64,000 nucleotides of DNA from an uncultured Chloroflexia bacterium. Lineage in GTDB: Bacteria; Chloroflexota; Limnocylindria; Limnocylindrales; CSP1-4. Both the position numbers and the translations under genes were made by a program. The notes beneath the pieces were generated by a model. The model saw only the letters and a list, made by a program, of their open reading frames with translations, was not told where the DNA came from and searched no databases. The first letter of the stretch is position 1. Every line of letters begins with the position of its first letter. Positions 18,680 to 62,813 of the stretch are shown piece by piece. The stretch spans positions 320,001-384,000 of the forward strand of contig CAVTHS010000008.1 in NCBI GenBank assembly GCA_963734535.1, in the 5' to 3' direction.

Positions 18680-19045
18680 TCAGCCGGCGCCGGGCACCGA
18701 GGTGGCGGCAAGCGCACGCTCGTTGGTCGGCTGGGGCCGTTCGGAGAGCTCGCCGAGGCGGGCGAGACGGCGCATCAGGACCCCGCGCATGAGGCTGCAC
18801 GCGGCGAGGACTTCCGGATCGGTCAGCCGATACCGGACCTCCCGTCCGTCGCGTTCGGACTCCACGATCCCCGCGGCCCGCATGACTGCGAGATGCTGGG
18901 AGACGTTCGGCTGGCTGATCCCCATCTCCTCTGCAAGGCGGCCGACTTCCTTCGGCTCGTCGGCGAGGAGGTGGAGGATCTCGAGCCGGCGGGGGCTTGC
19001 GAGGATCTTCATGACCTCCGATTGGAGGCTCCAGATCGGGTCCAT
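18680..19045 (-). CDS. ArsR/SmtB-family repressor
   Basis: KILASPRRLEIL, SQPNVSQHLAVMR, RDGREVRYRL; Cys in helix 5 (AACSLM). Confidence 0.9.
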   Translation of the reverse strand: MDPIWSLQSEVMKILASPRRLEILHLLADEPKEVGRLAEEMGISQPNVSQHLAVMRAAGIVESERDGREVRYRLTDPEVLAACSLMRGVLMRRLARLGELSERPQPTNERALAATSVPGAG

Positions 19046-19063
19046 GCGCGGGATCATGTACCC

Positions 19064-19079
19064 ATGCGCATCTGCGCAT
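19064..19079. promoter_or_regulatory. Putative ArsR operator palindrome (ATGC-N8-GCAT)
   Basis: ATGCGCA-tc-TGCGCAT lies between the DosR-like box and the -10 of arsR. Confidence 0.6.
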
Positions 19080-19081
19080 AA

Positions 19082-19095
19082 GGTGCGAATGGCCC
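19082..19095 (-). promoter_or_regulatory. DosR-like box of the arsR-sqr operon (second box at 19125-19138)
   Basis: Minus-strand GGGCC-ATTC-GCACC lies 23 nt from -10 CATGAT; upstream GGGCC-GTTC-GGCAC. Confidence 0.6.
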
Positions 19096-19167
19096 ATCAC
19101 CGGGACCGGCCGGCAGGGGGTCGCGGGCCGTTCGGCACGGGTGGACCGCGGCGGCCGGGCGCGCGGC

Positions 19168-20286
19168 TCAGCAGATCCGGGGCAGCTGCTCCCCGACCAG
19201 CATGTCCACGATCCGCTCGCTCCCGACGATCGTGCGGACCGTGACCATCGCAGGGTGGTCCGCGACCACGGTGCCGATCAGGGCCGCGTCGGCCCCCTCC
19301 GGCACGGCGCGCATCGCGGCCAGGACCGGCTCCGCGAACGCGGCGGGCACGAGCGCCACGAGCTTGCCCTCGTTCGCCACGTGGAGCGGGTCGAGGCCCA
19401 GCATCTCGCAGGCGGCACGTACCGGGCCGGGGATCGGGATGGCAGGCTCGTCGAGCACCATGCCGACGCCGGAGGTCGCCGCGATCTCGTTGAGCGCCGA
19501 CGACAGTCCTCCCCGGGTCGGGTCGCGGAGGACGTGGACGTCCGGGCAGGCGCCGAGGATGGCGGCGACCAGGCCGTTGAGCGCCTGCGTGTCGGAGGCG
19601 ATCTCCACCTCGAACTCGAGGCCCTCGCGGACGCTCATGATCGCGACGCCGTGCAGGCCGATCGGGCCGGACAGGATGATCGCGTCGCCGACGGCCGCGC
19701 GATCCGCGGCGGGGGCCACGCCGTCCGGGATCAGCCCGATCCCCGCCGTGTTCACGAACAGCCGGTCAGCGGCGCCCCGCCCGACGACCTTCGTGTCACC
19801 GGTCACGATCCGCGCGCCGGCCTTCACCGCCGCGCGGGCCGCGGACGCGGTGATCGCGCGGAGCTCCTCGAACGGCAGGCCCTCCTCGATCACGTAGGCG
19901 AGCGAGATCGCGACCGGCTGGGCCCCCATCATCGCGAGGTCGTTGAGGGTGCCGTTGACGGCCAGCTCGCCGATGTCTCCGCCCGGGAACGCGAGCGGGC
20001 TCACGACGAAGGAATCGGTGGTGAACGCCAGGCGCGCGCCGGCAACCTCGACGACGGCGGCGTCGTTGAGCGGGCCGCCCGGCGCGGCGGCCGCAAGCGC
20101 GGGCCCGATCACGTCACGCATGAGCGCGGCGGACAGCTGGCCGCCCGAGCCGTGGCCCAGGATGACGCGCTGGACCTCGGGGATCGGCGCCGGGCAGGCG
20201 AGGCCGTTCGCGTCGAAGAACACGGCATCCGCGGCCGGCGTCCCTGCGGACGCGACACCCGCCGGGAGGTCACGGACGCCGCTCAC
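19168..20286 (-). CDS. hypE: Hydrogenase maturation protein HypE
   Basis: [37 protein letters not shown]-terminal LPRIC. Confidence 0.97.
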
Positions 20287-21464
20287 CGGGCCGCCTCGGT
20301 CCTGTCGGGCTCGCGCGCGGGCGCGATCGGTGCGACCTGCAGCAGCGGCATCGCCGGGGTCAGGGTCCGCAGGCCTCCCAGCCCGCGGCCCGCGGAGAAG
20401 AACGCGGCGCAGGTCCCCTCGGAGCTCACCATCGGCGCGCCGAGCGGCTTCTGCGGGTTGCACAGCGTGCCGTACGCCGTGCAGTCGAGCGGCGTCTTCT
20501 CGCCGGTCAGGATCGCACCCGCGATGCAGGCCGGGTGCTCCTGGGTGTGGATGTCGCCGACCGAGAACCGGCTCTCCGCGTCGAAACGGGCGTACTTCTC
20601 GCGCAGCCGGTAGCCGGAGGCCGGGATCTCCCCGATCCCCCGCCATTTCCGCGTGCCGATCTCGAAGACCTCGAAGATCTGCTCCTGGGCGAGCGGGACG
20701 CCGTCGCGCTTGACGGCGCGGGCGTACTGGTTCTCCACCTCGTGGCGGCCCTCCTCGAGCTGGCGGATCGCCATCAGGATGCCCTCGAGGAGGTCGAGCG
20801 GCTCGAAGCCGGTGACCACGATCGGCACGTGGTACTTCGCGGCGATCGGCTCGTACTCGGTCCAGCCCATGACGGCGCAGACGTGGCCCGCCGCCAGGAA
20901 CGACTGGACCTGGTTGGCGGGCGATTCGAGGAGCGCCACCATCGCCGGCGGCACCAGCACGTGCGAGACAAGCACGCTGAAGTTGTCGATCCCGCGGCGC
21001 GCCGCCTCGGCGACGGCCGTGGCGTTCGCCGGCGCGGTGGTCTCGAAGCCGACCGCGAAGAAGACGACCTGCTTGTCCGGGTTGGCGACCGCGACCTTCA
21101 GGGCGTCGAGCGGCGAGTACACGATCCGGACGTCCGCGCCCCGGGCCTTGAGGGCCAGCAGGTCGGTCGTGGAGCCCGGCACGCGCAGCATGTCGCCGTA
21201 GCTGGTGAAGATGACGTCCGGGCGGGCCGCGATCGCGAGCGCCTTGTCGATCTGCTCGAGCGGCGTGACGCAGACCGGGCAGCCGGGCCCGTGGATCATG
21301 CGGACGCCCGCGGGCAGCGCCTCGTCGATCCCCTGCTTGACGATCGTGTGGGTCTGGCCGCCGCACACCTCCATGAGCGTCCACGGCCGGGTCGTGATCC
21401 GGTGGATCTCGGCGATCAGCTTCCTGGCGAGGACCGGGTCGCGGTACTCGTCGAGGTACTTCAC
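20283..21464 (-). CDS. hypD: Hydrogenase maturation protein HypD
   Basis: [32 protein letters not shown]. Confidence 0.97.
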
Positions 21465-21811
21465 GCGGGGCCTCCGGGCGCTCCCGTCACCGGGGTCGCG
21501 AAGGCACCGGTGGTCGGCGCCCCATCGTCGGAGACCACTGCCGGCGCGTCCATCCCGGGACCCATCGTGGCCAGCTCGGCCTGGACAAGGTCGCCCATCT
21601 GGGCAAGGATCTCGAGCGTCTTGAGCGCCTCGTCCTCGTCGACCCGCGAGATCGCGAAGCCGACGTGGATGATCACGTAGTCGCCGAGCTGCACCTCGGG
21701 GATGTAGGCAAGGCAGGCGTCCTTGCGGACGCCGCCGAAGTCGACCTTGCCCATGGGCAGGCCTCCGTCGTCGCGGATCTCGACGACTCGACCGGGGATC
21801 CCGAGGCACAT
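21461..21811 (-). CDS. hypC: Hydrogenase chaperone HypC
   Basis: [19 protein letters not shown]. Confidence 0.96.
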
Positions 21812-21816
21812 GGCTG

Positions 21817-24277
21817 CTACTTCCCTCCTGGTGCACGGCCGGCGGGGACGCCGGTGTCCGCGGCCGACCGGGCCGCCATGGTCGCGGCGGCGATGGCCGC
21901 CTGACCGTAGCTGATTCCGCCGTCGTTCACCGGGACGCGGCGGTTGATGAAGACGTCGAAGCCATCGCGGGCCAGCCGCCGGAGCAGCGCGCCGGCAAGG
22001 CGGCGGTTCTGGAAGACGCCGCCCGAGAGGCAGACGGTGCGAATCCCGGTGGTCGCGGCTGCGTCCGCGCAGAGCTCCCGGGTCAGCTCCGCGATCGTCT
22101 CGTGGAACGCGGCAGCGAGCGGGGCGACGGCGCCGCCGGCCGCCCGGCCGGCGAGCAGCGCGGCGAGCGTCTGGCGCGGGTCGTAGACGAGCAGGTCCCC
22201 CACGCGCTCCAGGGCGTAGGGCAGCGGCGCCGCCGTGCGATCGCCCGCGGCGATCTCGAGGTCGATCGCGGCCTGGGCCTCGTACTCGGCCACGTCGCGC
22301 AGGCCGAGGAGGCTCGCCGCGGCATCGAAGAGCCGCCCGGCCGACGAGGCGATGGGGGCGTTGAGGCCGCGCGCGACCTGGGTCCGGACCACCGCCACCT
22401 CCCGCGGGTCGAGGCGCCCGAGGAAGCCGGCCACGAGGTCGCCGTCGAAGCTCCCGGCGCCGGCGATCGCTGCCCCTTCGGACGGGCCGAGCGACTCCGC
22501 ACCGAGCAGGTACCCGAGCGCCATCCGATAGGGCCGCTTCACCGCGAGCGCGCCGCCGGGCAGCGGGGCACGGCCGAAGCGGGCAACCCTGCGGTACCCG
22601 ACGAGGTCGGCGACGAAGAGCTCGCCGCCCCAGAGCGTCCCGTCGTCTCCCATCCCAAGCCCGTCGTAGGCGACTCCCAGGAACGGCGTGGTGATGCCGT
22701 GCTCGGCCGCGCACGAGGCGACGTGCGCGTGGTGGTGCTGCACGGCGATCCGGCGATCTGCCGGGAACCGGGACACGGCGTACTTCGTGGAGAGGTACTC
22801 GGGGTGGCGATCGTGCGCCACGACCTCCGGCTCCAGCGCGAGGAGCCGGGAGAGGTGCGCCAGCCCGTCCGTGAAGGCGCGGTGGGTGGCAAGGTCCTCG
22901 AGGTCGCCGTTGTGGGGCGCCACGTGCGCCCGCCCGCCGCGCGCGAGCGTGAAGGTGTGCTTCAGCTCCGCCCCCACCGCGAGGATCGGGCGCATCGCCG
23001 CGACCGGGAGCGGGAGCGCCTCGGGGGCGTGGCCGCGCGCACGGCGGACCAGCGATTCGCGTCCGGCCACCACCCGCGTCACGGAGTCGTCGTAGCGGGC
23101 CCGGATCTCCCGATCGTGCGTCAGGAAGGCATCCGCGAGGCCCGCGAGCCGTGTGGACGCGTCCGCGTCGTCGGTGGCCAGCGGCTCGTCGGTGAGGTTG
23201 CCCGAGGTGAGCACGAGCGGCCGACCGACCGCCTCGAGGAGCAGGTGATGAAGCGGGGTGTACGGCAGGAAGATCCCGAGGCGGCGATTCCCGGCGGCCA
23301 CCGACGGCGCCAGCGCGGGCGTGCCACCCCGGCGCCGCGCGACGAGGAGCACGATGGGCCGCGCCGGCCCCCCCAGGAGCGCGGCCTCCGTCGACGTCAC
23401 GTGGCAGAGCGCGCGGGCGGCATCGAGGTCGCGGACCATGATCGCAAAGGGCTTCGCCCAGCGACGCTTCCGGTCGCGCAGCCGGCCGACGGCCGAAGCG
23501 TCCGTCGCGTCGCAGGCGAGGTGGTAGCCGCCGAGTCCCTTGACCGCGACGACCCTCCCGGCCCGCAGGTCCGCGACCGCGGCGCGCGAGCGCGGCCTCG
23601 TCGCGCGCGGTCGGTGCCGCCGCGTCGGTCCGGCGGTACGCCAGTCGGGGCCCACAGGCCGGGCAGGCCACGGGCTCGGCATGGAACCGGCGGTTCGCCG
23701 GGTCCGCGTACTCCGTCGCGCATGCGTCGCAGAGCGGGAACGCTCGCATCGTCGTCCGGGCGCGGTCGTAGGGCAGCTCGTCGATGATCGTGGCCCGCGG
23801 CCCGCAGTTCGTGCAGTTCGTGAATGGGTAGCGGTACCGCCGGTCGGCAGGATCGGCGACCTCCGCAAGGCATTCGTCGCAGGTCGCGATGTCCGGCGGA
23901 AAGAGCCGGTCCACGGCGGCGGCGTCGACGCTCTCGTCGATCGCGAAGTGCGTCGGGAGGCCGGCCGCGGCGCCCGGGTCGAGCGGCACCCAGGTTACTC
24001 GCTCCACCCGCGCACGAGGCGGCGCATCCGACCGGAGGCGCCGGGCGAAGGCGTCGAGCGCGCCGCCGGATCCGGCGGCCTCGATCTCGACGCGGCCGGC
24101 GGCGTTCCGGACCCGGCCGGTGAGCCCGAGCTCGGTTGCGAGGCGCCACACGAACGGCCGGAACCCGACGCCCTGGACCACGCCCTCGACCGTCAGGGCG
24201 CGGGCGCCGGGACTACCCCCGCGCACGCCCGCGGCGGCGTGCCCGCGCCCCTCGCGGGCGTCGATGGGTGCGCTCAT
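21817..24277 (-). CDS. hypF: Carbamoyltransferase HypF (frameshift near 23590)
   Basis: [11 protein letters not shown], zinc fingers (CDEC, CTNCGPR, CPACGP), [23 protein letters not shown]. Confidence 0.95.
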
Positions 24278-24312
24278 GCGCATAGGATGGCCCCAACGCC
24301 CTCCGACCGGAT

Positions 24313-24326
24313 GTGCCGAAGGTCCC
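24313..24326 (-). promoter_or_regulatory. DosR-like box of hypFCDE
   Basis: Minus-strand GGGAC-CTTC-GGCAC lies 23 nt from -10 CATCCT, which is 6 nt before the hypF ATG. Confidence 0.7.
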
Positions 24327-24333
24327 CCGAACG

Positions 24334-24432
24334 GCGGCCATCGGGCCGCCGGACGCGGCCATCGGGCCGCCGGACGCGGCCATCGGGCCGCCGGACGCGG
24401 CCATCGGGCCGCCGGACGCGGCCATCGGGCCG
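24334..24432. repeat. Perfect 21-bp tandem repeat (4.7 copies) with a palindromic unit
   Basis: (GCGGCCATCGGGCCGCCGGAC)n; each unit contains GCGGCC-atcg-GGCCGC. Confidence 0.95.
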
Positions 24433-24489: not shown

Positions 24490-24560
24490 GGGACGTTCGG
24501 CCCTTCCCGGCCCGAGGGACGATGGGGCCGTTTCGGTACCTGATCGCAACCCTTCGGCCC
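24490..24560 (+). promoter_or_regulatory. DosR-like boxes of the 2-oxoacid oxidoreductase operon
   Basis: GGGAC-GTTC-GGCCC at 24490-24503; CAACC-CTTC-GGCCC at 24547-24560 lies 23 nt from candidate -10 GAGGCT. Confidence 0.65.
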
Positions 24561-24624
24561 TATCCCCCCGGTCGCCGCGGGCGGAGGCTCGGGCCAACAG
24601 AGCCAGGCAGGAGGTTCCAACCGC

Positions 24625-24939
24625 ATGATCGCCGTGGCACAGGGCTCCCTCTCGTTACCGGGCGCGGAGTCGCCGGCCCTCGCCGGCCCCGCGCCCGGGA
24701 CCTGGAGCCCACTCCGCATCGAAACCGACCGCTGCAAGGGTTGCTCGCTCTGCATCGGCGCCTGCGCGCACGGTGCTCTCGCCCTCGACGAGACGCGCGT
24801 GAACGCCCTTGGCTACCACCCCATCCGGCTCGTCGACCCCGCCGCGTGCACGAGCTGCGCGCTCTGTGCGCGGGTCTGCCCGGACTGCGTCCTGACTGTC
24901 TTCGCGGCGCCCAAGCCGCGCCGTGGGGCCGTGCGATGA
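24625..24939 (+). CDS. 2[4Fe-4S] ferredoxin-like delta subunit
   Basis: [11 protein letters not shown] and [13 protein letters not shown]; AGGAGG RBS. Confidence 0.92.
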
Positions 24940-26094
24940 CCATCGCGACCATTCCGCCGACTCCGCTCCATCACGGCCACCGCGTCCTCATGAAGGGCAA
25001 CGAGGCGATGGCGGAGGCTGCCATCCGGGCCGGCTGCGATGCCTATTTCGGCTACCCGATCACGCCCCAGGCCGAGCTCCTGGAGTGGATGGCCCGCCGG
25101 ATGCCCGAGGAGGGCCGCCCGTTCGTGCAGGCCGAGTCCGAGCTCGGCGCGATCAACATGGCCCTCGGCGCGGCTGCCACGGGCGCCCGGGTCCTCGTCT
25201 CGTCGTCGTCCCCCGGCATCAGCCTCATGGCCGAGGCGATGAGCTACATGGCCGGCGCCGAGATCCCGATGGTCCTCGTCAACGTCATGCGCGGCGGCCC
25301 GGGCCTCGGCGGCATCGGGCCCAGCCAGGCGGACTACTTCCAGGCGACGAAGGGCCATGGCCACGGCGACTACCGCGTCCCCGTCCTGGCGCCGTCCTCG
25401 ATCGGCGAGGCGATGGCGCTCATGGCGGACGCGTTCGAGCTCGCCGAGAGGTACCGGACGCCGGTCTTCGTCCTGGCGGACGGCACGCTTGGGCCAGGCG
25501 ATGGAGCCGGTCGAGCTGACGTTCCGCGAGCCGCCCCGGCTCGCGGGCGAATGGGCGGTCACCGGGGCGGATGGTCGCCCGCCGCGGGTCGTGAAGTCGA
25601 TGCACCTCGAGCCCGAGGACCTCGAGCTGCACAACCAGCACCTCCAGGCCAAGTTCGCCGAGATCGCCGCCCGCGAGGTCCGCTGGGCCGGCGAGAACCT
25701 CGACGGCGCGGAGCTGGTGATCGTCGCCTACGGGACCGCCGCGCGGGTGGCGCGGACCGCGATCTCCCGGGCCCGCGCTGACGCACTGCGAGTCGGGCTC
25801 TTCCGACCGATCACCCTGTGGCCGTTCCCGTCGGAAGCCCTCGCGGAGGTCGCCGTGAACGCGCGTGGCGTCCTCGTGGTGGAGCTGTCGGCAGGACAGA
25901 TGGTGGAGGACGTGCGCCTCGCCATCGAGGGACGACGACCCGTCGCCTTCGAGGGCCGAACGGGCGGCATGGTCCCGACACCGGGCCAGGTCCTGGACGC
26001 GCTGCGCCGGCTCCGCGGGGCGACGGCCGGGGCCACGACGTCCGTCGCCCCAGCGACGCCTGGCGATGCGGCGAGCCAGGAGACCCGGCCATGA
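24936..26094 (+). CDS. 2-oxoacid:ferredoxin oxidoreductase alpha subunit (VorB-type; frameshift near 25490)
   Basis: [49 protein letters not shown]. Confidence 0.9.
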
Positions 26095-26861
26095 CGACCG
26101 AGATCCCGGCGGGCGCTCGCGTCATCTTCGAGCGACCGGAGCTGCTCGCCGATCGCAGCACCCACTACTGCCCCGGGTGCGGGCACGGCGTCGTCCACCG
26201 GCTCATCGCGGAGGTCCTCGGCGAGCTCGGGCTCGGCGCGAAGACCATCGCGGTGGCGCCGGTCGGGTGCGCCGTCTTCGCCTACGACTACATCGGCGTC
26301 GACTTCGTGGAGGCGCCCCACGGACGTGCGCCGGCGGTCGCGACCGGCATCCGGCGCGTCCGGCCGGACGCCTTCGTGCTCACCTACCAGGGCGACGGAG
26401 ACCTGGCGGCCATCGGGACGGCGGAGATCATCCACGCGGCCGGCCGCGGAGAGCTGCTGACGGCCGTCTTCGTCAACAACGGGATCTACGGGATGACCGG
26501 CGGCCAGATGGCCCCGACCACGCTGCTCGGCCAGCGGTCCACGTCGTCGCCCGGCGGGCGGGAGGCCGCGTTCCACGGCTACCCGATCCCGATGACGGAG
26601 ATGCTCGCGATCATGCCGGGCGTGGCCTACGCTGCCCGCGGCTCGGTCGCCGACGCGCCGTCGATCGGCCGGACGAAGCAGTACCTGCGCCGCGCGTGCG
26701 AGATCCAGCTCGAGGGACGCGGGTTCGCGATCGTCGAGGTGATCAGCAACTGCCCGGTCGGCTGGGGCATGACGCCCACGGAGTCGATCGAGCGGCTCCG
26801 CGACGTGGTGGCGAAGGAATACCGCCCCGGCGTCATCGTGGACCGGACGAAGGAGGCCTGA
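26091..26861 (+). CDS. 2-oxoacid:ferredoxin oxidoreductase beta (TPP-binding) subunit
   Basis: YCPGCGHG, YQGDGD...NNGIYGMTGGQMAPTT. Confidence 0.93.
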   Translation: MTTEIPAGARVIFERPELLADRSTHYCPGCGHGVVHRLIAEVLGELGLGAKTIAVAPVGCAVFAYDYIGVDFVEAPHGRAPAVATGIRRVRPDAFVLTYQGDGDLAAIGTAEIIHAAGRGELLTAVFVNNGIYGMTGGQMAPTTLLGQRSTSSPGGREAAFHGYPIPMTEMLAIMPGVAYAARGSVADAPSIGRTKQYLRRACEIQLEGRGFAIVEVISNCPVGWGMTPTESIERLRDVVAKEYRPGVIVDRTKEA

Positions 26862-26864
26862 CCG

Positions 26865-27437
26865 ATGGAACGATCGGTGATCTTCGCCGGCTTCGGCGGC
26901 CAGGGGCTCCTCTTCGCCGGGCAGGTCCTGGCGCGCGCGGCGATGGACGAGGATCGCGAGGTCCTCTGGATCCCGACCTACGGGCCCGAGATGCGGGGCG
27001 GAACGGCCGCCTGCACCGTGATCGTGGGTGACGAGCCGATCGGCTCGCCGGTGGTCGACGCGGCCTGGGCTGCCGTCGTGCTGAACCCGCCGTCGCTGGC
27101 GAAGTTCGCACCGCTCGTGGCGCCGGGTGGCACGCTCGTCGTCAACGCCACGCTCATCGAGGCCGAATCCGGCCGCCACGACGTGGACGAGCTGCGCGTC
27201 CCGTGCACGCGCCTTGCGCGCGAGGCCGGCGACGACCGGCTCGTGAGCGTGGCAGCCCTCGGGGCGCTCGTCGGACGGACCGGCATCGTGGGCGCGGACG
27301 CGATTGCCAACGCGCTGCGGGAGATTCTCGGTCGCAAGCATCCCGAGGCGCTGGAAGCCGACCTGGCGGTCTTCGAAGGCGGACTCTCGTTCGGGCAGGC
27401 CGCGCTGGCGACCGCACCGGCGCCTGCGGCCGGCTGA
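26865..27437 (+). CDS. 2-oxoacid:ferredoxin oxidoreductase gamma subunit
   Basis: AGFGGQG, YGPEMRGG. Confidence 0.93.
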   Translation: MERSVIFAGFGGQGLLFAGQVLARAAMDEDREVLWIPTYGPEMRGGTAACTVIVGDEPIGSPVVDAAWAAVVLNPPSLAKFAPLVAPGGTLVVNATLIEAESGRHDVDELRVPCTRLAREAGDDRLVSVAALGALVGRTGIVGADAIANALREILGRKHPEALEADLAVFEGGLSFGQAALATAPAPAAG

Positions 27438-27530
27438 GCGCGCGCGAGCACTGGACCGCCGCCCGGCTGGGCGGCGGTCTGGAGGCTGAACGGCCGAAGC
27501 GCCGGGCGTGGACCGCCCGGCCCGGGCCCG

Positions 27531-28557
27531 TCAGGCGGGGGTGAGGTCGCGGCGGGGTGGACCAGGAACGCAGCGTCCGCATGTAGTTGGCGCGCTCGAA
27601 CGCCGACGGATCCTCGACCGCCGTCGAGCTCGCGCTGCCCCGGAGCTGGCTGACCGACTCGTACTCGTTCTCGGCCATCCAGGTTCGAAGCGCCGCCTCG
27701 ACGGTGCGGATCTTGTCCGGGCCGTGGCGGAGGATCGCGGACGTCATCATCGCAACGTCGGCGCCGACCATGAGCGCCTTGACGACGTCGGTCGCGGAGC
27801 CGATCCCGGAGGTGGCGGCCAGGGATGCGTCCGGGCCGAGCTGGGGTCGCAGGATCGCGATCCAGCGCATTGGCAGGCGCAGCTCCCAGGGCTGGCTCAG
27901 GTCGAGCCGGGCGACGACCTCGAGCGTGTCGAGATCGAGGTCCGGCTGGTAGAAACGGTTGAACAGGACCAGCCCGTCCGCCCCGGCATCGATGACGTGG
28001 CGCGCGACGTTCGCCATCGAGGAGTAGTAGGGACTGAGCTTGACCGCCAGCGGGATGCTGACGGACGACCTGACCGCGGCGATCAGCGCCAGGTCCGCCG
28101 TCTCGACGTCGGCCGCCGACCTGGCCGGGTCCGCGGCCACGTGGTAGAGGTTGAGCTCGAGCGCGTCCGCGCCGGCGTCCTCCATGAGCTTTGCGTAGCG
28201 GACCCAGCCACCGGTGCTGGTGGCGTTGAGGCTGGCGATGACCGGGACGGCCGACTGGGCCTTGATCTGTCGAAGCCTGGCCAGGTAGCGGTCCCCGGCT
28301 CCGGCGAACGCCTGGATGTTCGGGAAGTAGTCGAGCGCCTCGGCGAAGCTGTCCGTGCCGGCCTCGAGCGACCGGTTGATCTCGATCTCCTCGAAGACGA
28401 CCTCCTCCTCGAAGAGCGATGGCAGGACGATCGCCGCCGCCCCCGCCTGCTCGAGCAGGCGGGCGGATGCGGGCTCGCCGGTCAGCGGCGACGCCGAGGC
28501 GACGATCGGCGAACGGAGGTCGAGACCCAGGTACCGGGTGCGCAGATCGACGGTCAC
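27531..28557 (-). CDS. Dihydroorotate-dehydrogenase-like flavoprotein (nifJ-associated); probable end near 27531 after a homopolymer slip (ORF track runs on to 27154)
   Basis: LRSPIVASASP, PSLFEE, ALELNLY, VKLSPY, LFNRFYQPD, FERANYM. Confidence 0.85.
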
Positions 28558-31500
28558 TCGACATCTCCCTTCGCAGCGGCAGCGGAGTCAGCCATCATCG
28601 GCTCCGCCGTCACGTCGTCCGGCGTGCCTCCCGCGATCGTGGTCGCGGAGTCGGCGTCCGGTGGGAGCTCCGCCTGGGTGCCGGGTTCCATCGGGGGCAG
28701 GTGCGGCACGCTGCGGTGCATCGCCGCGAGCTGCTCGTAGTAGCGCCAGCGCTCGTCGACGTCCGCCTGCGCGAGCTTCGCGAGGTCGGCCGCCCGCTCG
28801 GGCTGGGTGCGGGCGAGGATCGCGAACCGGGTCTCGCCCGCGACGAAGTCGCTGACCGGCATCGAGGGCCTGGTCGAGTCGAGCTTGAACGGCTGGCCGG
28901 ACTCGGTGTCGCTGGGATGGAACCGGTAGAGCGGCCAGTAGCCGCTCTTGACGGCGTCCTTCTGGTGGGACATGGACTTCGACATGTCGATGCCGTGGGC
29001 GATGCAGGTGCTGTAGGCGATGACCAGGGACGGCCCCGGCCAGGCATCCGCTTCGAGCAGCGCCTTGGCGGCCTGCGCGTCGTTGGCGCCCATCGAGATC
29101 TGGGCAACGTAGACGTCACCGTAGGCCCGGGCGACCGCGCCGAGGTCCTTCTTGCCGCGGGACTTGCCGGCCGCCGCGAACTTGGCGACCGCGCCGCGCG
29201 GGGTGGCCTTCGACGCCTGGCCCCCGGTGTTGGAGTAGACCTCCGTGTCGAGGACCAGGACGTTGACGTTGCGGCCGGAGCCCAGGACGTGGTCGAGCCC
29301 GCCGTACCCGATGTCGTAGGCCCATCCGTCGCCGCCCACGATCCACACGCCCTTGCGGACGAGGTCGTTGGCGAGGGCGAGCAGGTGCCGTGCGTCGGAA
29401 CCGGAGTCGCCGTCCATGGCGCCGAGGATCTCGCGGAGGCGCACGATGCGCGCGCGCTGGGCGTCGATGCCCGTCTCGGTGTCCTGGTCCGCTTCGAGGA
29501 TGTCCCGGACGAGGTCCGGTCCGATTGCCGGCGCGAGCTTCGTGACCAGCCGTCGGGCCTGGTCGTTCTGGGCGTCGAGCCCGAGGCGCATGCCCAGGCC
29601 GAACTCGGCGTTGTCCTCGAAGAGCGAGTTGTTCCAGGCCGGGCCGCGGCCCTGGGCGTTCACCGTCCACGGGGTCGTGGGCAGGTTGGCGCCATAGATC
29701 GACGAGCAGCCCGTGGCGTTGGCCACGATCATCCGGTCGCCGAAGAGCTGCGAGACCAGCTTGAGGTACGGAGTCTCGCCGCAGCCGTTGCAGGCCAGCG
29801 AGAACTCGAAGAGCGGCTCCAGCACCTGGGCGCCCTTGACGGTGTCGTGGGCGATCAGGCTCCGGTCGAGCGGCGCGATCGACTGGAAGAACTCCCAGTG
29901 CGGCCGCTCGACATCGCGATGAGCGGCAGCGGGCTCGAGGTTGATGGACTTGTGCTTGACCTCGCTCTTGCTCTTGGCCGGGCAGACGTCCACGCAGACA
30001 CCGCAGCCGGTGCAGTCGTCCGGGGCCACCTGGATCGTGATGCGGTGGTCCAGCAGGTCGCGGGACTTGAACTCCTTGGACTGGAAGCCCGCGGGCGCGC
30101 CCTCGACGGCCGCGGCCGGGTAGACCTTCATCCGGATCGCGGCGTGCGGGCAGACCATGGCGCACTTGCCGCAGTCGATGCAGATCGACGGATCCCAGAT
30201 CGGGAGCTCCAGGGCGATGGCCCGCTTCTCGAACCGGGTGGTGCCGGACGGGAACGTCCCGTCGACCGGGAAGGCCGAGACCGGGAGCCGATCGCCGTCG
30301 CCGGCCATCAGGGTCGCCGTGACCGTCTTGACGAAGTCCGGCGCGTCGGCGGGCACGACGGGGGGAAGGGCGTGGCCGGTCGTGGCCGGGCCGAGCGTCA
30401 CGTGACCGAGGCGGGCGATCGACGCGTCGATGGCCGCGAAGTTCTGGTCCACGACCGCCTGGCCGCGCTTGGCGTAGGTCTTCTCCACGAAGGCCTTGAT
30501 CCGCTCGATCGCCTCTGCCGACGGCAGCACGCCCGAGAGGTGGAAGAAGCAGGGCTGCATGATCGTGTTGATGCGCGTGCCCATGCCCGTCTCGGCGGCC
30601 ACGGCGAGCGCGTCGATGACCCAGAAGTCGATCTTCTTGTTGACCAGGTGCCGCTGGACATCGACCGGCAGCCGATCCCAGATCTCGTCCGGCCCGTACG
30701 GCGAGTTGAGGAGGAACGTCGCGCCGGGCTTGGCGAAGTCGAGGATCTTGATCTTGTCGAGAAGCCCGAACTGGTGGCAGGCGACGAAGTCCGCCGAGTC
30801 GATGAGGTAGGCCGACTTCGTCTGGACAGGCCCGAAGCGGAGGTGCGAGACCGTGGTCCCGCCGGACTTCTTCGAGTCGTAGACGAAGAAGCCCTGCGCG
30901 AAGAGGTCGGTGCCCTCGCCGATGATCTTCACGGAGGCATGGTTCGCCCCGACGGTGCCGTCGGAGCCGAGGCCGAAGAAGAGCGCCTGCACTTCGCCCG
31001 CGGGGCGCGGGGTGCGGTAGTCCACGTCGATCGGCAGGCTCAGGTGCGTGACGTCGTCGTAGATGCCAACCGTGAAGTGGCGCTTGGGCCGGTCCGCCGA
31101 CAGCTCGTCGAACACGGGCCGGATCATGCCGGGTGTCACTTCCTTGGACGAAAGGCCGTATCGGCCGCCGATGACGCGGGGCATCGTCGTGAACGGGGGC
31201 TCCTCGGAGTCCATCTGCTCGGTGAGCGCGGCCACGACGGCCTGGTAGAGGGGCTCCCCGACCGCGCCGGGCTCCTTGGTCCGGTCCAGGACAGCGATCG
31301 CCTTGACCGTCGAGGGGAGGGCGGCCATGAGCGCATCCGACGGGAACGGCTGGAAGAGCCGGACCACGACGACGCCGACCTTCTGGCCGGTGGCGTTGAG
31401 GGCGTCGACGGTCTCCTGCACGGCGCCGGCGGCGGAGCCGATGATCACGATGACCCGGTCCGCGTCCGGAGCGCCGTGGTAGTCCACGATGCCGTAGCGG

Positions 31501-50632: not shown

Positions 50633-51100
50633 TCAGCGGCAGGATCGACAGCGCCCCACGATCGTCACGTGGGAGAGGTCGACAGCGAACCCTCGAGCGG
50701 CTTCGAGGGACGCCACGATCGTGGCGCCCTCATCCTTCGTGATCTCCCAGGCAGCGCCGCATGCCCGGCAGTGCAGGTGCCCGTGCTCGGCATCCGGGAG
50801 GACGTGGTACTCCTCGCGACCGTCCGGGCCGTGGCCATGGCGCACGATGCCCAGGTCCTCGAGGACGTCCAGCGTCCGGTAGACGGTGGACGGGATCGTC
50901 GACGGGTCCTGCTCGCGGCAGCGCTCGATCAGGTCCGCACCGGTCACGTGGCCGCGGGTCTGCGAGAGCACCGCGACCAGCGCCCTCCGCTGGGGAGTCC
51001 AGCGCAGGCCGCGCGCGCGGAGTCGATCCCGAACCGATTCCCAGGCGGCGACGTCGTCCGCCCGGGATTCGCTGCGGGGGTGCGATCCGGCGGGCTGCAT
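50633..51100 (-). CDS. Fur-family regulator, Nur-like
   Basis: TPQR, STVYRTL, RHGH, HGHLHCRAC, DLSH, CRSC; TATACT -10 7 nt before the ATG. Confidence 0.88.
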   Translation of the reverse strand: MQPAGSHPRSESRADDVAAWESVRDRLRARGLRWTPQRRALVAVLSQTRGHVTGADLIERCREQDPSTIPSTVYRTLDVLEDLGIVRHGHGPDGREEYHVLPDAEHGHLHCRACGAAWEITKDEGATIVASLEAARGFAVDLSHVTIVGRCRSCR

Positions 51101-51137
51101 CGCGCGAAGTATAGGTGGGATGGGCGCCCGCGACCGT

Positions 51138-51157
51138 TGTTGCAACTGATTGCAGCA
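51138..51157. promoter_or_regulatory. Putative Fur/Nur operator
   Basis: TGTTGCAACTGATTGCAGCA, an AT-rich near-palindrome between the divergent fur and nikM genes. Confidence 0.65.
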
Positions 51158-51245
51158 AGCGGCCTTCTCGCCTAGACTTCGGCAGGTCCGCCGCGCGCGT
51201 GGCCGATTTGCCTGCCAGCTTGTCCGAGGTCGACCGGAGCGCTCC

Positions 51246-53426
51246 ATGCACATCCCGGATGGCTACCTGAGCCCAATCGTCTCCGTCGGCCTGGGTGCCG
51301 CGACGCTCCCCGCCTGGGGAATCGCGTCCCAGAAGGTCAAGGCGATCCTCGACAACCGGACCATCCCGCTCCTCGCCATCTTCGCCGCGCTCAGCTTCAC
51401 GATCATGATGTTCAACATCCCGGTACCGGGGGGCACGACGGCCCACGGGGTCGGCGGGACGCTGATCGCGATCGTGCTGGGTCCCTGGGCGGCGGTGATC
51501 GCGGTGAGCGTCGCGCTGGTCATCCAGGCGCTCTTCTTCGGGGACGGCGGGGTCCTGGCGATCTTCGCGAACTGCCTGAACATGGGCGTCCTCCTGCCGT
51601 TCGTCGGCTACGCCGTCTACCGGCTTCTTGCCGGGGGCTCGCCGCTGCTCTCGTCGCGGCGTGCCGTCGCGGCCGGAATTGCGGCGTATGTCGCGATCAC
51701 CGCGTCCGCGCTCGCCGTCGGGATCGAGCTGGGAATCCAGCCGCTCCTCTTCAGCGACGCGTCGGGACGGCCGCTCTACTCCCCCTACGACCTCAACGCG
51801 GCGATCCCGGCGATGCTCCTCGCGCACACCCTGGGGGCCTCGATCGTGGAGGGACTCATCACCTACCTCGGGGTCGCCTACCTCCAGAAGCGCCATCCGG
51901 CCTACCTGACGTCGCTCCGCGGCGTCTACGCGCCGGGCGTGGACGACGACGGCGTCGCTCCATCGCGGCCCTTCCGGCAGGTGTTGGCCGCGACCGCGGG
52001 CGGCGCGCTGATCGTGCTCGTGGCGGTCGGGCTGGTCCTCGGGGGCGGCGATCCCGGGAGGCTCTTCGGCGCGAACTGGTCCAGCGTCAACTGGGCCGAC
52101 GTCGCGACGATGCTCCTCGTCACCGGGGTCATCGGGGCCGTGGGCGTGCCGCTCGCCTATCTCGTGCTGCCGTCGCGACTCAAACGGGTGGGGGCCGCGT
52201 TCACGCTCGGGGCCGTGATCGCGCCGCTCGGCCTGATCGCGCCCGGCTTCGCGTACGGGGAGGGCGGCACGGCGGACGTGCAGGCCGCGTTCGGCTACAT
52301 CCCGCAGGGCCTCCAGCACCTGTCCGGCTTCTTCAGCGCGCCGCTGTCCGGGTACACGATCCCCCTGCCGTTCTTCGAAGGGGCGAACGCGACGCTGTGG
52401 CATGCGGCCGTCGGCTACCAGGCGGCCGGGATCATCGGGATCCTGCTCTGTGGCGGGGTCGTGCTGGCTGTCACGCGGCTGGTCGGCCGGCGCGGCGCGG
52501 CGCCCGGGAGCGCCGCCCCGGCTCCCGATCCCGGAGCCGCCGAGGCCGCTGCGACGGCACCCCGATCCGCGGCCGAGGTCGCCGGGCGCCGCGAGGGCCG
52601 AGTGGGCTGGCTCGAGCAGACGCTCGGCGGGATCACGACGTCCATCGAGCACGCCATCTTCACGGAGCAGCATGCCCGCACGGACGGGTGGCTGCAGCGG
52701 CGCGATCCGCGGGCCAAGCTCGGGATGTTCCTGGTGCTGGTGCTCGCGGCCAGCCTCACGTCCTCCGTCGCGGTCCTCGCCGCGCTCTACGCGCTCACGC
52801 TGGCGGCGGCGCGTGCCAGCCACGTGCCATTCTCGTTCTTCGTGAGGCGGGTCTGGCTGGGAATCCCCCTGTTCGCGGGGATCGTGGTCATCCCGGCCCT
52901 GTTCATCGTCCCCGGGCCGCGCCTCTTCGACCTTGCGTTCGGGCCGTTGCACCTCGCGCTCTCCGCGCCCGGCTGCGCCGGCGCGGTCCTCTTCCTCGCC
53001 CGGGTCGGCGTATCGGTCTCGGTCGCGGTGCTCCTCGTGATGACGACGCCGTGGGCGGACATCCTCAAGAGCCTGCGCGCCCTGCGCGTGCCCCAGGTGT
53101 TCGTGCTCGTCCTCTCGATGACCTACCGCTACATCTTCCTCTTCCTCCATACCGCGAACGGGATCCTGCTCGCCCGCAAGAGCCGGGTCGTTGCCCGGAC
53201 GACCGGAGGCGAGCAGCGCCGCTGGATCAGCGGGACCATGGGGAACCTGATGAGCCGGGCCTTCAAGATGAGCAACGACGTCTATGCCGCGATGCTGGCG
53301 CGCGGCTTCTCCGGGGAGATGCGGGCCCGATCGGTGCGCCGGATGCGGACCGCGGACTGGGCGGCGCTCGGGGGCGTGGTCGCGGTCGCGGCGGTCACGC
53401 TCGTCGGCGGTCGGATGCTGCCGTGA
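51246..53426 (+). CDS. ECF Ni/Co transporter: NikM/CbiM + NikN-like + CbiQ/NikQ in a single ORF
   Basis: N-terminal MHIPDGYL; APLGLIAPG..GE..GYIPQGL..AP; DPRAKL, LRALRVP, MTYRYIF, AMLARGF. Confidence 0.85.
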   Translation: MHIPDGYLSPIVSVGLGAATLPAWGIASQKVKAILDNRTIPLLAIFAALSFTIMMFNIPVPGGTTAHGVGGTLIAIVLGPWAAVIAVSVALVIQALFFGDGGVLAIFANCLNMGVLLPFVGYAVYRLLAGGSPLLSSRRAVAAGIAAYVAITASALAVGIELGIQPLLFSDASGRPLYSPYDLNAAIPAMLLAHTLGASIVEGLITYLGVAYLQKRHPAYLTSLRGVYAPGVDDDGVAPSRPFRQVLAATAGGALIVLVAVGLVLGGGDPGRLFGANWSSVNWADVATMLLVTGVIGAVGVPLAYLVLPSRLKRVGAAFTLGAVIAPLGLIAPGFAYGEGGTADVQAAFGYIPQGLQHLSGFFSAPLSGYTIPLPFFEGANATLWHAAVGYQAAGIIGILLCGGVVLAVTRLVGRRGAAPGSAAPAPDPGAAEAAATAPRSAAEVAGRREGRVGWLEQTLGGITTSIEHAIFTEQHARTDGWLQRRDPRAKLGMFLVLVLAASLTSSVAVLAALYALTLAAARASHVPFSFFVRRVWLGIPLFAGIVVIPALFIVPGPRLFDLAFGPLHLALSAPGCAGAVLFLARVGVSVSVAVLLVMTTPWADILKSLRALRVPQVFVLVLSMTYRYIFLFLHTANGILLARKSRVVARTTGGEQRRWISGTMGNLMSRAFKMSNDVYAAMLARGFSGEMRARSVRRMRTADWAALGGVVAVAAVTLVGGRMLP

Positions 53427-54325
53427 TCGAACCCGTCGTCGAACCGCACGGCGAGCCGGTCTTCGAGCTCGCCGGCGTCCGCTACGTCTACAACGACCGC
53501 CAGGTGGCGCTCGACGGCATCGACCTGGTCGTGCGTCCGGGCGAGCAGGTCGTCCTGCTCGGCGCGAACGGGTCCGGCAAGTCCACGCTCCTCAAGCTCC
53601 TCGACGGGATCATCGCGCCCTCGAGCGGTCGCATGCGGGCGATGGGCCTGGAGATCGCGTCGGTCGTCGATGGCATCGGCGCGTTCCGGTTCCATCGCCA
53701 GGTGGGCCTCGTCTTCCAGGACCCGGACATCCAGCTGTTCAGCGCCACCGTGCTCGACGACGTGGCCTTCGGGCCGCTCCAGCTGGGCCTCCCGGCAGCG
53801 GAGGTCGAGGCGCGCTGCGACGAGGCGCTGGGCATGATGGAGATCGGGCACCTGGCCAACCGGGCGCCCTTCGAGCTCTCGGGCGGCGAGAAGAAGCGGG
53901 CGGCGATCGCCTCCGTCCTGTCACTGCGACCTGACGTGATCCTTCTCGACGAGCCGACGGCGGCGCTCGATCCCCGCACGAAATGGGTCCTCGTGAACCT
54001 CATCCGGCGCCTCGGCGAGGCCGGCCGGACCGTGATCACGGCCACCCACGAGCTGGACATCGTCCCCGTCATCGCGGACCGGGTGGTGGTCCTCGGCGAG
54101 GACCGGCGCGTCCACGCCGACGGCACGCCCGCCGCCGTCCTGGGCAACCGCGACCTGCTCATCGCCGCCAACCTGATCCACGAGCACCTGCACGAGCATG
54201 GCGGGGTCCGCCACTCGCACCCGCACGCGACCGACGAATCGCACGACGGGCCGGACGCGGACGAGGACGGGGTCCCCGGGATCAGGCCGGATGGCGTCGC
54301 CTGGACGGCAGGCCCGGCCCGCTGA
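53423..54325 (+). CDS. ECF ATPase CbiO/NikO with His-rich tail
   Basis: GANGSGKST, FQDPDIQLF, LSGGEKKR, HEHLHEHGGVRHSHPH. Confidence 0.92.
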   Translation: MIEPVVEPHGEPVFELAGVRYVYNDRQVALDGIDLVVRPGEQVVLLGANGSGKSTLLKLLDGIIAPSSGRMRAMGLEIASVVDGIGAFRFHRQVGLVFQDPDIQLFSATVLDDVAFGPLQLGLPAAEVEARCDEALGMMEIGHLANRAPFELSGGEKKRAAIASVLSLRPDVILLDEPTAALDPRTKWVLVNLIRRLGEAGRTVITATHELDIVPVIADRVVVLGEDRRVHADGTPAAVLGNRDLLIAANLIHEHLHEHGGVRHSHPHATDESHDGPDADEDGVPGIRPDGVAWTAGPAR

Positions 54326-59250: not shown

Positions 59251-59276
59251 ACGGCGGCGGACGCCATGCGCCGCCG

Positions 59277-61072: not shown

Positions 61073-61076
61073 CTGA

Positions 61077-61655
61077 TCAGCGCGACCGGCGCAGGAACCA
61101 GGCCAGTCCTGCAATGACCAGGGAAGCCAGGACCACGAGCGCCACTGCGATATCTCCGGACCCGCCCGAGCTGCCGCCAGCCGCAGCGCCCGGAGACGCG
61201 ATGGGGGTGGCGGCCGTGCCGGGCGATGCAGACCCCGCCTGGACGGATCCTTCCGCGGGAGCCGCAATCGTGAACCTGAACGTTCCCCGCTCGATCCCGT
61301 TGTCGTCCGGCGTGATCGTGGTCCAGCGAACGCTGTAGACCCCGGGCGCGAGCGTGCCGTAGCCGGAGATCGTCATGGATTCGGCAGTCGCCGAGGTCAC
61401 GGCGGCGTTCGCCGCAAGCGTCGAACCATCGGGACCGAGCAGCTCCATCGAGCTCCTGCCCGTGTCGAATGCCTCGGCGAAGGTCGCGCTGATCGATGCC
61501 GGGGAGGCCGTGAGCGTCGTGCCGTCCGCCGGATCGGAGCTGGCCAGCGACGCGTGCGCCAGCGCGGCGGCGACCGGCGTGAGGATCAGGAGGGCAAGCG
61601 CGAACGCCGATGCCCAGAGCCACGGGCGCGCGAGTCGAGCCGATCGAGGGATCAT
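61077..61655 (-). CDS. copC: CopC-like copper-binding protein with C-terminal TM anchor
   Basis: AHASLASSDPADG, LAPGVYSVRW, GTFRFTI. Confidence 0.8.
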   Translation of the reverse strand: MIPRSARLARPWLWASAFALALLILTPVAAALAHASLASSDPADGTTLTASPASISATFAEAFDTGRSSMELLGPDGSTLAANAAVTSATAESMTISGYGTLAPGVYSVRWTTITPDDNGIERGTFRFTIAAPAEGSVQAGSASPGTAATPIASPGAAAGGSSGGSGDIAVALVVLASLVIAGLAWFLRRSR

Positions 61656-61749
61656 CGCGCGGCACGGTAGCAGGAACCGCGCCGGCGGACGTTTGTGCGC
61701 CCGCGGCACGGGACGACCGTCCATCGGCCGCACTCGAAGCGCAGCCGAG

Positions 61750-62667
61750 TCAGCGAATCCCGGTGTCGTAGGAGAGATCGACGCGAACCCAGGCGCCGGC
61801 GCCGGGCGGCACGACCACTTCGATCGGCGCGGGCGCATGCATCAGCCCGGCCGCAGGGGCCGCCTCGACGCGCACGCTGCCGGCGGGGACGGCCATGCGG
61901 TACGAGCCATCCGGGGCCGTTGTCGTGCTGGCGATCTGGCCTCCCCCGGCGTCGCGAACGATGATCGTCGCCCCGCCGACGGGCTTCGGGGCGCAGCCGG
62001 GAAGGGGCGGGTTGCTCTCGACAGGGCATGTGGGGCCGGCGGTCGCCACGCCGACGATCCACGGCCCGCCGCTCGATGGGATCCCGACCGAGGGGGTGCT
62101 GGAAGCTCGTGGGGTCGGCACGAGTGTCGGGCGTGGCGTGGGTTGCCGGGTGAACGTCGGGGGCACTGTCGGAGAGAGCATCGGCGACACCGTCGGAGCG
62201 GGCGTCGGGCTGGCCTGCGCCAGCGCGCTCGGGGCGGGCTGGGCGCTCGCGATCGGGCCGCTCGCCGCGGGAAGCGCATCACCGGCCTCGCTCACCTTCG
62301 AGGCAACCCCATCGGACGTCACGGCGTACACCCACGTGTGGTGGGAGATGCAGCCGGCCGGACAATCGCCCCAGCCCACCTGGACCGTGACGCTCCAGGC
62401 GGGCGCGGCCGGCATGACCTCGTACCACGAACCCTGGCCGACCATGCCCGCGTCGCGCGGGCCGATCCCGGCGAAGCGGGCGTCCAGCGCGACGACGATT
62501 GCGGCGGCTTCGGATGCGGTGATCGCGCTGGCGCGAGCCGTCGGCGTGACGGCCGGCGTCGAGGTCGGAGCGCCGGGGCTCCCGGCGGCCGGGGCGCTGC
62601 ACGCCGCGACCACAAGCCCCACGATGAGCAGGCTGGCGAGTACGGCAGGTCGGGATGGGACGCGCAC
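61750..62667 (-). CDS. Two-domain Cys-containing lipoprotein (C-terminal carboxypeptidase-regulatory-like fold)
   Basis: Lipobox VAAC; GWGDCPAGC; Pro/Thr linker; GPTCPVE..C; YDTGIR. Confidence 0.75.
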   Translation of the reverse strand: MRVPSRPAVLASLLIVGLVVAACSAPAAGSPGAPTSTPAVTPTARASAITASEAAAIVVALDARFAGIGPRDAGMVGQGSWYEVMPAAPAWSVTVQVGWGDCPAGCISHHTWVYAVTSDGVASKVSEAGDALPAASGPIASAQPAPSALAQASPTPAPTVSPMLSPTVPPTFTRQPTPRPTLVPTPRASSTPSVGIPSSGGPWIVGVATAGPTCPVESNPPLPGCAPKPVGGATIIVRDAGGGQIASTTTAPDGSYRMAVPAGSVRVEAAPAAGLMHAPAPIEVVVPPGAGAWVRVDLSYDTGIR

Positions 62668-62727
62668 GGTTCGATGACGGTAACGCCGTCGGCGCGGTTC
62701 CGCACGCGGCGCGGTTCCGCACGCGGC

Positions 62728-62763
62728 GTGCCGTTCGGCGACCGGTTCGGATCCGAACGGCCG
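62728..62763 (+). promoter_or_regulatory. Tandem degenerate DosR-like boxes
   Basis: GTGCC-GTTC-GGCGA and GATCC-GAAC-GGCCG, 22 bp apart; the proximal one lies 23 nt from -10 TACCGT. Confidence 0.45.
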
Positions 62764-62813
62764 TCTCGCGGGTCACCACGGCGACGTACCGTCGGGGCGC
62801 TGGAGGTACGCAC

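Follow-up and report, generated by a model that had tools for sequence, protein, structure and literature searches.

A probable DosR/DevR-type two-component regulon, with boxes at a fixed distance from predicted promoters, in an uncultured Limnocylindria bacterium (Chloroflexota)

In Mycobacterium smegmatis, a DosR-type regulator switches on a [NiFe] hydrogenase for fermentative hydrogen production in hypoxia, and in Mycobacterium tuberculosis the DosR regulon, an oxygen-sensing switch by which this species enters dormancy, includes CBS-domain and P-type ATPase genes, DosR also driving the small RNA DrrS. The kinases DosS and DosT carry two tandem GAF domains. According to the consulted part of a study of the M. 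tuberculosis regulator, also named DevR, this protein contacts GGGACT in each half-site, every promoter of its regulon carries two to four tandem boxes in which a conserved box nucleates binding to weak neighbours, and the P and S boxes of tgs1 lie at -42.5 and -63.5, their helical phase being essential (PMC3177182). The consulted parts of two other papers give Asp54 as the phospho-acceptor of DevR (PMC3029386) and AGGGCCGATCGGCCCT as the consensus of the Streptomyces coelicolor regulator OsdR (PMC5069765). Here, we address a 64,000-nucleotide stretch of DNA, hereafter the window, from an uncultured Chloroflexota bacterium of the class Limnocylindria (assembly GCA_963734535.1, contig CAVTHS010000008.1), in which a first-pass annotation made from the sequence alone had proposed a clustered hypoxia regulon of DosR type. 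The window corresponds to C8:320001-384000 of a genome of 3.2 Mb, 72% G+C and 14 contigs; sites elsewhere in this genome are given in the same contig:position form.

The window encodes a response regulator and a sensor kinase related to those of the DosR/DevR system, and 14-bp boxes lie at a fixed distance from the predicted promoters of nearby operons. We estimate at about 80% the probability that these parts belong to a DosR/DevR-type two-component regulon in Chloroflexota, and the evidence supports the proposal that it may act as a hypoxia switch. The consensus box is GGGMC-N4-GKCMC, its centre being usually RWWC. Read directly from the sequence, the proximal boxes are followed after 23–24 nucleotides (nt) by an xAxxxT hexamer, a candidate -10 element, and 6–8 nt further on by a start codon devoid of any Shine-Dalgarno sequence; these promoters carry no -35 hexamer of their own. 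For instance, the box at 19082-19095 is separated by 23 nt from CATGAT (19053-19058), itself 7 nt from the ATG of arsR at 19045. The same arrangement is found upstream of hypF (box 24313-24326, 23 nt, CATCCT at 24284-24289, 6 nt, ATG at 24277), of a receiver-nifJ operon (box 32762-32775, 24 nt, GACGCT at 32732-32737, 6 nt, ATG at 32725), of a CoA transferase gene (box 34382-34395, 24 nt, CAGACT at 34352-34357, 6 nt, ATG at 34345) and of a laccase (multicopper oxidase) gene (box 40882-40895, 23 nt, TACCAT at 40919-40924, 8 nt, ATG at 40933). The box at 32784-32797 faces the + strand in the same way, with CACACT (32822-32827) after 24 nt and, 7 nt beyond, a GTG at 32835. At these six positions, the box centres fall within the 42.5–44.5 nt upstream of the start codon that the first-pass annotation had given. 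The ArsR and CoA-transferase orthologues align from residue 1–2 in all 30 loci taken for each, which supports the start codons and therefore leaderless mRNAs. Most target mRNAs are predicted to be leaderless.

The boxes differ in quality. They were scored with a matrix derived from sites of other genomes, tail fractions being taken among the 565,926 crude non-coding 14-mers of this genome. Six of the nine boxes listed by the first-pass annotation are strong, namely 32784 (score 17.1, the strongest in the window), 24490-24503 (16.4; a palindrome of the hypF/2-oxoacid:ferredoxin oxidoreductase (OFOR) intergenic region), 40882 (16.3), 24313 (15.3), 34382 (12.1) and 19082 (9.5, tail 1.6e-4). The three others are degenerate: 62750-62763 (1.9, tail 0.2%), a weak candidate, 24547-24560 (-2.5, tail 0.8%) and 32762 (-7.1, tail 2.8%). 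Furthermore, a strong box at 19125-19138 (16.6, tail 1e-5) was absent from that list. The caveat that GC-rich motifs match easily was justified, the loose pattern being weak alone: GGGMCN4GKCMC has 12 exact strand matches in the window versus 5.8 +/- 3.0 in 100 shuffles, that is only about 2-fold more, and two shuffles reach 12. The more stringent form GGGMCNTTCGKCMC has 12 occurrences genome-wide, 9 of them in crude non-coding DNA and 4 in the window. The 31 genome sites scoring at least 15 include 18 in crude non-coding DNA, which makes up 18.5% of the genome (P = 1e-6), and 5 between 19000 and 41000, a 22-kb span that represents 0.7% of the genome (P = 2e-6). Because of this non-coding excess and this clustering, the motif can be regarded as real and clustered, and the clustered boxes are confirmed as an observation.

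The 23–24 nt spacing, whose -10 elements were at first picked by eye, is no artefact of these picks and reappears in independent genomes, the comparison across loci being the strongest of the tests. In 80 Limnocylindria loci, which are the surroundings of orthologous regulators, 121 boxes were found in 64 loci, and xAxxxT occurs 37 times at a spacing of 23 nt and 28 times at 24 nt versus an average of 4.9 (maximum 13) at other spacings. When a start codon 5–8 nt beyond the hexamer is included, the counts at 23 and 24 nt are 21 and 15 versus a mean of 1.0. A composition-matched decoy matrix yields 40 sites, compared with 231 for the real matrix, and no 23/24 peak. In this genome, the 77 non-coding boxes outside the window show xAxxxT 8 times at 23 nt and 10 times at 24 nt (mean at other spacings 3.7, standard deviation 1.7, maximum 8), and, again outside the window, boxes scoring at least 11 that combine xAxxxT and a start codon number 10 at spacing 24, other spacings averaging 1.4 (maximum 5). 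The motif also recurs upstream of orthologues, a check that the first-pass annotation had proposed, at the promoters of arsR, the CoA transferase, hypF, nifJ, OFOR and the universal stress protein (USP). Since the spacers differ across loci, it is the position that is conserved and not the sequence.

The secondary boxes 22 bp further out, initially reported at two promoters, are confirmed and prove to be general; 24490, which sits 57 bp from 24547, is off the 22-bp register. Across the upstream regions of 62 distinct sites, the matrix score averages -10.5 at -22 and -14.8 at -23, compared with about -20 to -30 at the other offsets between -60 and -14, and box pairs are found outside the window at C2:19419/19441 and C6:26688/26710. 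At arsR, the best box lies at -49/-50, -71/-73 or -93/-96 from the conserved ATG in 27 of the 30 family loci, which defines three registers 22 bp apart; in the window, 19082 is the proximal box and 19125 the distal one, in the third register, 43 bp away. The -22/-23 peak and these three registers correspond to the DevR-type arrangement, in which a conserved box is accompanied, in helical phase, by at least one weak tandem neighbour. In L239, a locus from a genome of another Chloroflexota class, three boxes 23–24 bp apart (4837-4897) lie directly upstream of a DosR-like gene, which suggests autoregulation there.

The regulator (38343-39014, - strand) harbours a receiver domain (PF00072, 7.8e-29) and a GerE helix-turn-helix (PF00196, 5.4e-19). 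Its best solved relative is M. tuberculosis DevR/DosR (3c3w, E 3.4e-57, residues 10-222, a full-length match), followed by VraR (5.6e-46), and a hand count of the printed alignment gives about 47% of positions identical to DevR. As reported by the first-pass annotation, it carries the DosR recognition helix KTVKNYVS, which is identical in the DevR alignment and occurs only once in the genome; the residues Lys-x-x-Lys-Asn of KTVKN are those that we take to contact the bases in DevR. The aspartate of its DVRLPDG motif is aligned and identical to that of DevR and, from our own reading of the alignment, would be the Asp54 equivalent. Close relatives of this regulator have been named 'response regulator DevR' by JGI. 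The adjacent kinase gene (39043 to about 40263, - strand, with an uncertain 5' end) encodes a GAF domain followed by HisKA_3 and HATPase domains, an order that is that of DosS/DosT-type kinases. The GAF domain matches those of DosT (2vzw, E 5.5e-31) and DevS (2w3d, 1.9e-29), presumably their haem-binding GAF-A domains, and retains the histidine of HP(P/E)M and the tyrosine of LYLT, which we assume to be the haem ligand and the distal residue, respectively; residues 181-393 match DesK. The relatives of the kinase align only from query residue ~141, about 40200 downward. The segment 40200-40620, upstream of the kinase core, has 80% G+C and another codon-phase signal (frame plot shift at 40200-40560) and lacks conservation in relatives; possible readings are an N-terminal extension, a small gene of its own or non-coding DNA.

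The boxes and the regulator are associated well beyond this genome. In 35 of the 80 loci, boxes adjoin the regulator-kinase genes at the same place as in the window, upstream of the kinase gene and facing a divergent gene, here the multicopper oxidase-USP operon (multicopper oxidase with a TAT signal, 40933-42360; USP, 42405-42821; both + strand). Across the 80 loci, most of these boxes are followed at 23/24 nt by a (T/C)AnnAT hexamer and then by a leaderless start codon. In 18 loci from other Chloroflexota classes, EKTVKNYV(S/T) is retained in six regulators, five of which, including that of L239, have nearby boxes scoring at least 11, whereas eight regulators with GEGTVRNYVS share a single box in total; the latter loci are also lower in G+C. 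A regulator orthologue was found at E <= 3.4e-129 in 23 of 24 same-genus genomes, the exception being a genome 56% complete, and in none of the 16 genomes of a sister family with small genomes. Homologues at E <= 1e-60 are present in 85 of the 251 sampled Chloroflexota genomes; the DosR design, in which boxes stand in tandem at -42.5 and -64.5, therefore extends far outside Actinomycetota. The orthologous loci come from metagenome-assembled genomes (MAGs) labelled Chloroflexota or Candidatus Limnocylindrales/Limnocylindria, in agreement with the non-actinobacterial host previously proposed. No description of a DosR/DevR-type regulon in Chloroflexi or Limnocylindria was found in the literature searched, which is not proof of absence. 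Six RNA libraries share 0.09–0.20 of sampled words, and the four compared as contigs show mostly 90–95% likeness and give no start, strand or level. One contig of library X16 ends at 32723, beside the predicted start at 32725; as a single contig, it does not amount to evidence.

The mechanism that these data suggest would be as follows. The kinase, through its DosS/DosT-like haem GAF domain, would sense a shortage of oxygen or some related signal, gaseous or redox, and would phosphorylate the NarL-family regulator, dimers of which would bind the GGGMC-RWWC-GKCMC boxes. The centre of the proximal box would lie over the -35 region, about 42.5–43.5 nt before the transcription start, and one or two weaker boxes located 22–23 bp, i.e. 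two helical turns, further out would be filled cooperatively. The bound regulator would then recruit RNA polymerase to promoters having only a -10 hexamer (xAxxxT), most of which would produce leaderless mRNAs. The putative targets in the window would be hypFCDE, ferredoxin-OFOR, the receiver-pyruvate:ferredoxin oxidoreductase (PFOR) operon, the CoA transferase, the multicopper oxidase-USP operon and the ArsR-controlled sulfur-relay/sulfide:quinone oxidoreductase (SQR) operon. Sequence comparison shows a motif that is fixed in position, phased in tandem and conserved across genera, and the families to which the regulator and the kinase belong; we infer the binder of the boxes, activation rather than repression, hypoxia as the signal and the transcription starts themselves.

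Several observations weigh against this interpretation. The closest paralogue of the regulator in the same genome shows 44% identity, so that the ~47% to DevR is hardly higher; orthology therefore rests on the recognition helix, the kinase GAF domain, the USP neighbour and the motif. Only one GAF domain is present in the kinase, at residues 41-184 of the 406 searched and with HisKA_3 beginning near 181, compared with two in DosS and DosT. As to the matrices, the first took its seed sites from the window and the second was built from sites selected by their spacing, so that scans with the second matrix are partly circular. Genes were called by our own crude caller, based on G+C at third codon positions (GC3), which marks 18.5% of the genome as non-coding and mis-sets several starts; the coding/non-coding counts are thus rough, and box 34382 was wrongly flagged as coding. 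By these calls, 13 of the 31 sites scoring at least 15 fall in coding DNA. No xAxxxT is found at 23–24 nt from the strong boxes C2:39813, C5:35170, C10:128375 and C10:297061, nor is any -10 found at this distance from box 24490, in either direction. Finally, in 23 of the 29 family loci, the 450 bp that precede hypF contain no box scoring at least 11, and the strong nifJ box is confined to the genus (4 of 30 loci).

Among the rival explanations, the one that survives best, with a small probability, keeps DosR-type sites and makes the regulator a repressor, or makes it answer nitric oxide, carbon monoxide, redox state or sulfide. A site over the -35 region can also block the polymerase, the PDB entries matched by the kinase call DosS a redox sensor, and among the targets is a sulfide-handling operon with a second operator. 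However, the position of the sites equals that of DevR-activated promoters, and the promoters lack a -35 hexamer of their own. The match to the DosT and DevS GAF domains at E about 1e-30, with the His and Tyr retained, and a target set that belongs to anaerobic metabolism (PFOR, OFOR and hydrogenase maturation) also weigh against this rival.

Slightly less probable still is a binding of these boxes, assumed real, by another factor, either a CRP/FNR-family protein in class II position or one of the ~50 other NarL-type regulators, the genome having 51 matches to the regulator. At class II CRP/FNR promoters, a dimeric activator covers the -35 region, centred about 41–43 nt upstream of the start, and no -35 hexamer is present; the sites centre near -41.5. 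The box variant GTGAC-N4-GTCAC contains GTGA-N6-TCAC, a CRP-type core, and a gene for a protein with a cNMP-binding domain heads a box-preceded hydrogenase operon at C2:19382. Nevertheless, the boxes do not follow the CRP/FNR consensus (TGTGA-N6-TCACA or TTGAT-N4-ATCAA): at position 2, G is found in 52 of the 62 sites and T in 10, C stands at position 4 in 44 of them, and the usual half-site is GGGCC or GGGAC, not GTGA. Tandem arrays phased at 22 bp are a hallmark of DevR. KTVKNYVS is unique in the genome, and the boxes accompany the regulator-kinase genes throughout the class and outside it. A third explanation, by which 72% G+C would generate the motif by chance or a repeat element would underlie it, and the -10 hexamers would be wishful picks, can be dismissed as highly improbable: it accounts for the 2-fold excess of the loose pattern and for three degenerate boxes out of nine, but not for the non-coding enrichment, the clustering, the sharp 23/24 peak of independent genomes, the lack of a peak with the decoy matrix, or a box position conserved while the spacer diverges.

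Returning to the DosR/DevR-type regulon, its individual promoters illustrate how the architecture varies. The genes proposed by the first-pass annotation (hypFCDE, ferredoxin-OFOR, receiver-PFOR-DHOD-like, acetyl-CoA hydrolase/transferase, multicopper oxidase-USP and ArsR-DsrE-TusA-SQR) are all backed by Pfam profiles, by which gene content was assigned. The arsR operon (15758-19045, - strand) encodes ArsR, DsrE-like, TusA, DsrE-like and TusA proteins and an SQR-like flavoprotein. The name 'arsR-sqr' given to its promoter calls for a correction: sqr (15758-17059, - strand) is the last gene of this operon, and the neighbour of arsR itself is hypE. Between the proximal box and the -10, a 16-bp palindrome, ATGCGCA-N2-TGCGCAT (19064-19079), is visible in most of the 30 orthologous promoters and is probably the own operator of the ArsR-family repressor, which we take to be SqrR/BigR-like. 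The sulfide operon would therefore be under dual control.

The hyp genes (19168-24277, - strand; hypF, hypC, hypD and hypE, assigned by Pfam, frame plot and tblastn) are preceded by the full box architecture in 6 of 29 loci, all six from genera g1 and g8. The reading frame of hypF is shifted near 23584: residues 47-280 of the HypF of a relative match 24292-23585 and residues 281-774 match 23583-22081 in another frame, the switch lying at 23583-23585. This change reflects either an assembly error or a broken gene. On the other side of the intergenic region, the ferredoxin and OFOR subunit genes (24625-27437, + strand) are preceded by box 24547, a GAGGCT -10 (24584-24589) and then a leader with AGGAGG before the ATG at 24625; CAA(C/T)CCTTCGGC(A/C)C, the 23/24 nt spacing and GA(C/G)GCT are retained in three of three same-genus loci. 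About five tandem copies of a 21-bp unit occupy 24330-24430 in this intergenic region, and shorter tandem duplications lie at 32876-32920 and 62690-62725. For the acetyl-CoA hydrolase/transferase (CoA transferase) gene (33074-34345, - strand), the best box is in the proximal register in 17 of the 30 family loci and 22 bp further out in 4, and wherever the box is in register, a (T/C)A..CT-type hexamer lies 6–7 nt before the ATG.

The operon encoding a receiver-only protein, PFOR (nifJ) and a DHOD-like protein (27154-32725, - strand) has 32762 as a degenerate proximal box, in which only the GGGMC half-site is retained, and 32784 as distal box. Box 32784, this half-site and the 23/24 spacing are kept in four of four same-genus loci; in other genera, boxes lie at -77 to -214, mostly without a -10 at 23–24 nt, locus L149 having CACGCT at 23 nt. 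Box 32784 doubles as the proximal box of the + strand start, at which a 37-nt hairpin (32835-32871) with a 13-bp stem is conserved, with a compensatory change, in four genomes of the genus. The open reading frame there has 19 codons only, the Rfam search of the window, including this hairpin, gave no match, and the fold of 32837-32960 is not significant as a whole (z = -1.8). The hairpin transcript from the 32822-32871 region is a candidate box-regulated small RNA. The weak candidate 62750 is followed 23 nt on by TACCGT, then by GGAGG and an ATG at 62814, and a second weak box (score 4.3) lies at 62728, 22 bp further upstream; none of the compared loci showed a relative of the gene at 62814.

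Elsewhere in the genome, the candidate members of the regulon include, at C2:19419/19441, an operon that encodes, after a cNMP-binding protein, an Fe-S/NAD subunit and both the small and the large [NiFe] hydrogenase subunits. Others are a CBS-CBS-BON protein (C8:130421, with a leader), a P-type ATPase with a hemerythrin domain (C14:150118), a flavodoxin-like protein (C2:264523), a PCu(A)C copper chaperone (C9:30074) and a site with TAGAAT at 24 nt and GAPDH downstream (C6:26710). The [NiFe] hydrogenase operon and the genes for the CBS-domain protein, the P-type ATPase and the flavodoxin-like protein are likely further targets. The box at C2:264523 is followed by a triplicated 19-mer. Two boxes scoring 17.5 and 17.8 (C5:30877 and C5:31221) belong to a duplicated segment, with CACAAT 25 nt away at each and the same downstream sequence. 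The site C2:251438, upstream of an operon encoding a receiver protein and a group-4-like hydrogenase, was not counted, as it has no usable -10 and an uncertain start. Within the window, a Fur-family regulator gene is divergent from genes for a fused CbiM-CbiQ and a CbiO transporter (50633-54325); this CbiMQO-type transporter near the hydrogenase maturation genes is likely a nickel or cobalt supply system.

A broader view can be put forward only tentatively, the odds being somewhat against it as a whole: DosRS would be an old and widespread system of Chloroflexota, perhaps of Terrabacteria. In soil Limnocylindria, which are abundant and uncultured, it would exert a master control over fermentative hydrogen metabolism, and it would also drive the small RNA 32835-32871 and share the arsR-sqr promoter with a persulfide-type ArsR, so that low oxygen and sulfide would be read together. 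We know of no cultured model for Limnocylindria (formerly Ellin6529). In such organisms, a full and testable circuit can be read from sequence, comprising sensor, regulator, binding site, promoter rule and target list. It predicts a switch to ferredoxin-based fermentation and hydrogen cycling as oxygen falls, which bears on gas fluxes in waterlogged or thawing soils. The fixed box-to-start rule is also a practical aid for annotating leaderless starts and regulon members in Limnocylindria MAGs.

Compared with known systems, class II CRP/FNR promoters differ from those described here by their half-site, by the tandem 22-bp arrays found here and by the family of the regulator. The presence of boxes upstream of hypFCDE and of the hydrogenase operon C2:19419 recalls M. 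smegmatis; unlike in this species, PFOR, OFOR and CoA transferase appear to be co-regulated here. In S. coelicolor, the OsdR/OsdK system has a consensus that nearly equals the box found here, shares with DevR sites and with this box the 5-4-5 geometry, and has USP genes clustered nearby; it is actinobacterial, and the consulted part of its description tabulates sites at -62 to -334 from genes and notes neither a fixed -42.5 architecture nor a tandem rule (PMC5069765). The closest likeness is to DevR/DosR of M. tuberculosis, with the same domain order, the identical recognition helix, a kinase GAF domain of the DosT/DevS type, CBS-domain and P-type ATPase targets that resemble its regulon, and USP genes beside the system, the USP gene being here in an operon divergent from the regulator genes and not in their own. 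As far as the consulted part of the DevR work goes, palindromic GGGAC-type half-sites and tandem boxes in helical phase are also common to both, and its proximal box at about -42.5 would be matched here by boxes 42.5–44.5 nt from conserved start codons, the predicted transcription starts. The differences from M. tuberculosis concern the host, a single-GAF kinase, mostly leaderless predicted mRNAs, a half-site more often GGGCC than GGGAC with a RWWC centre, and targets centred on hyp, PFOR/OFOR, CoA transferase and the sulfide operon. Globally, the mechanism copies the published DevR architecture and is no new one; what is new is the phylum that hosts this DosR-type regulon.

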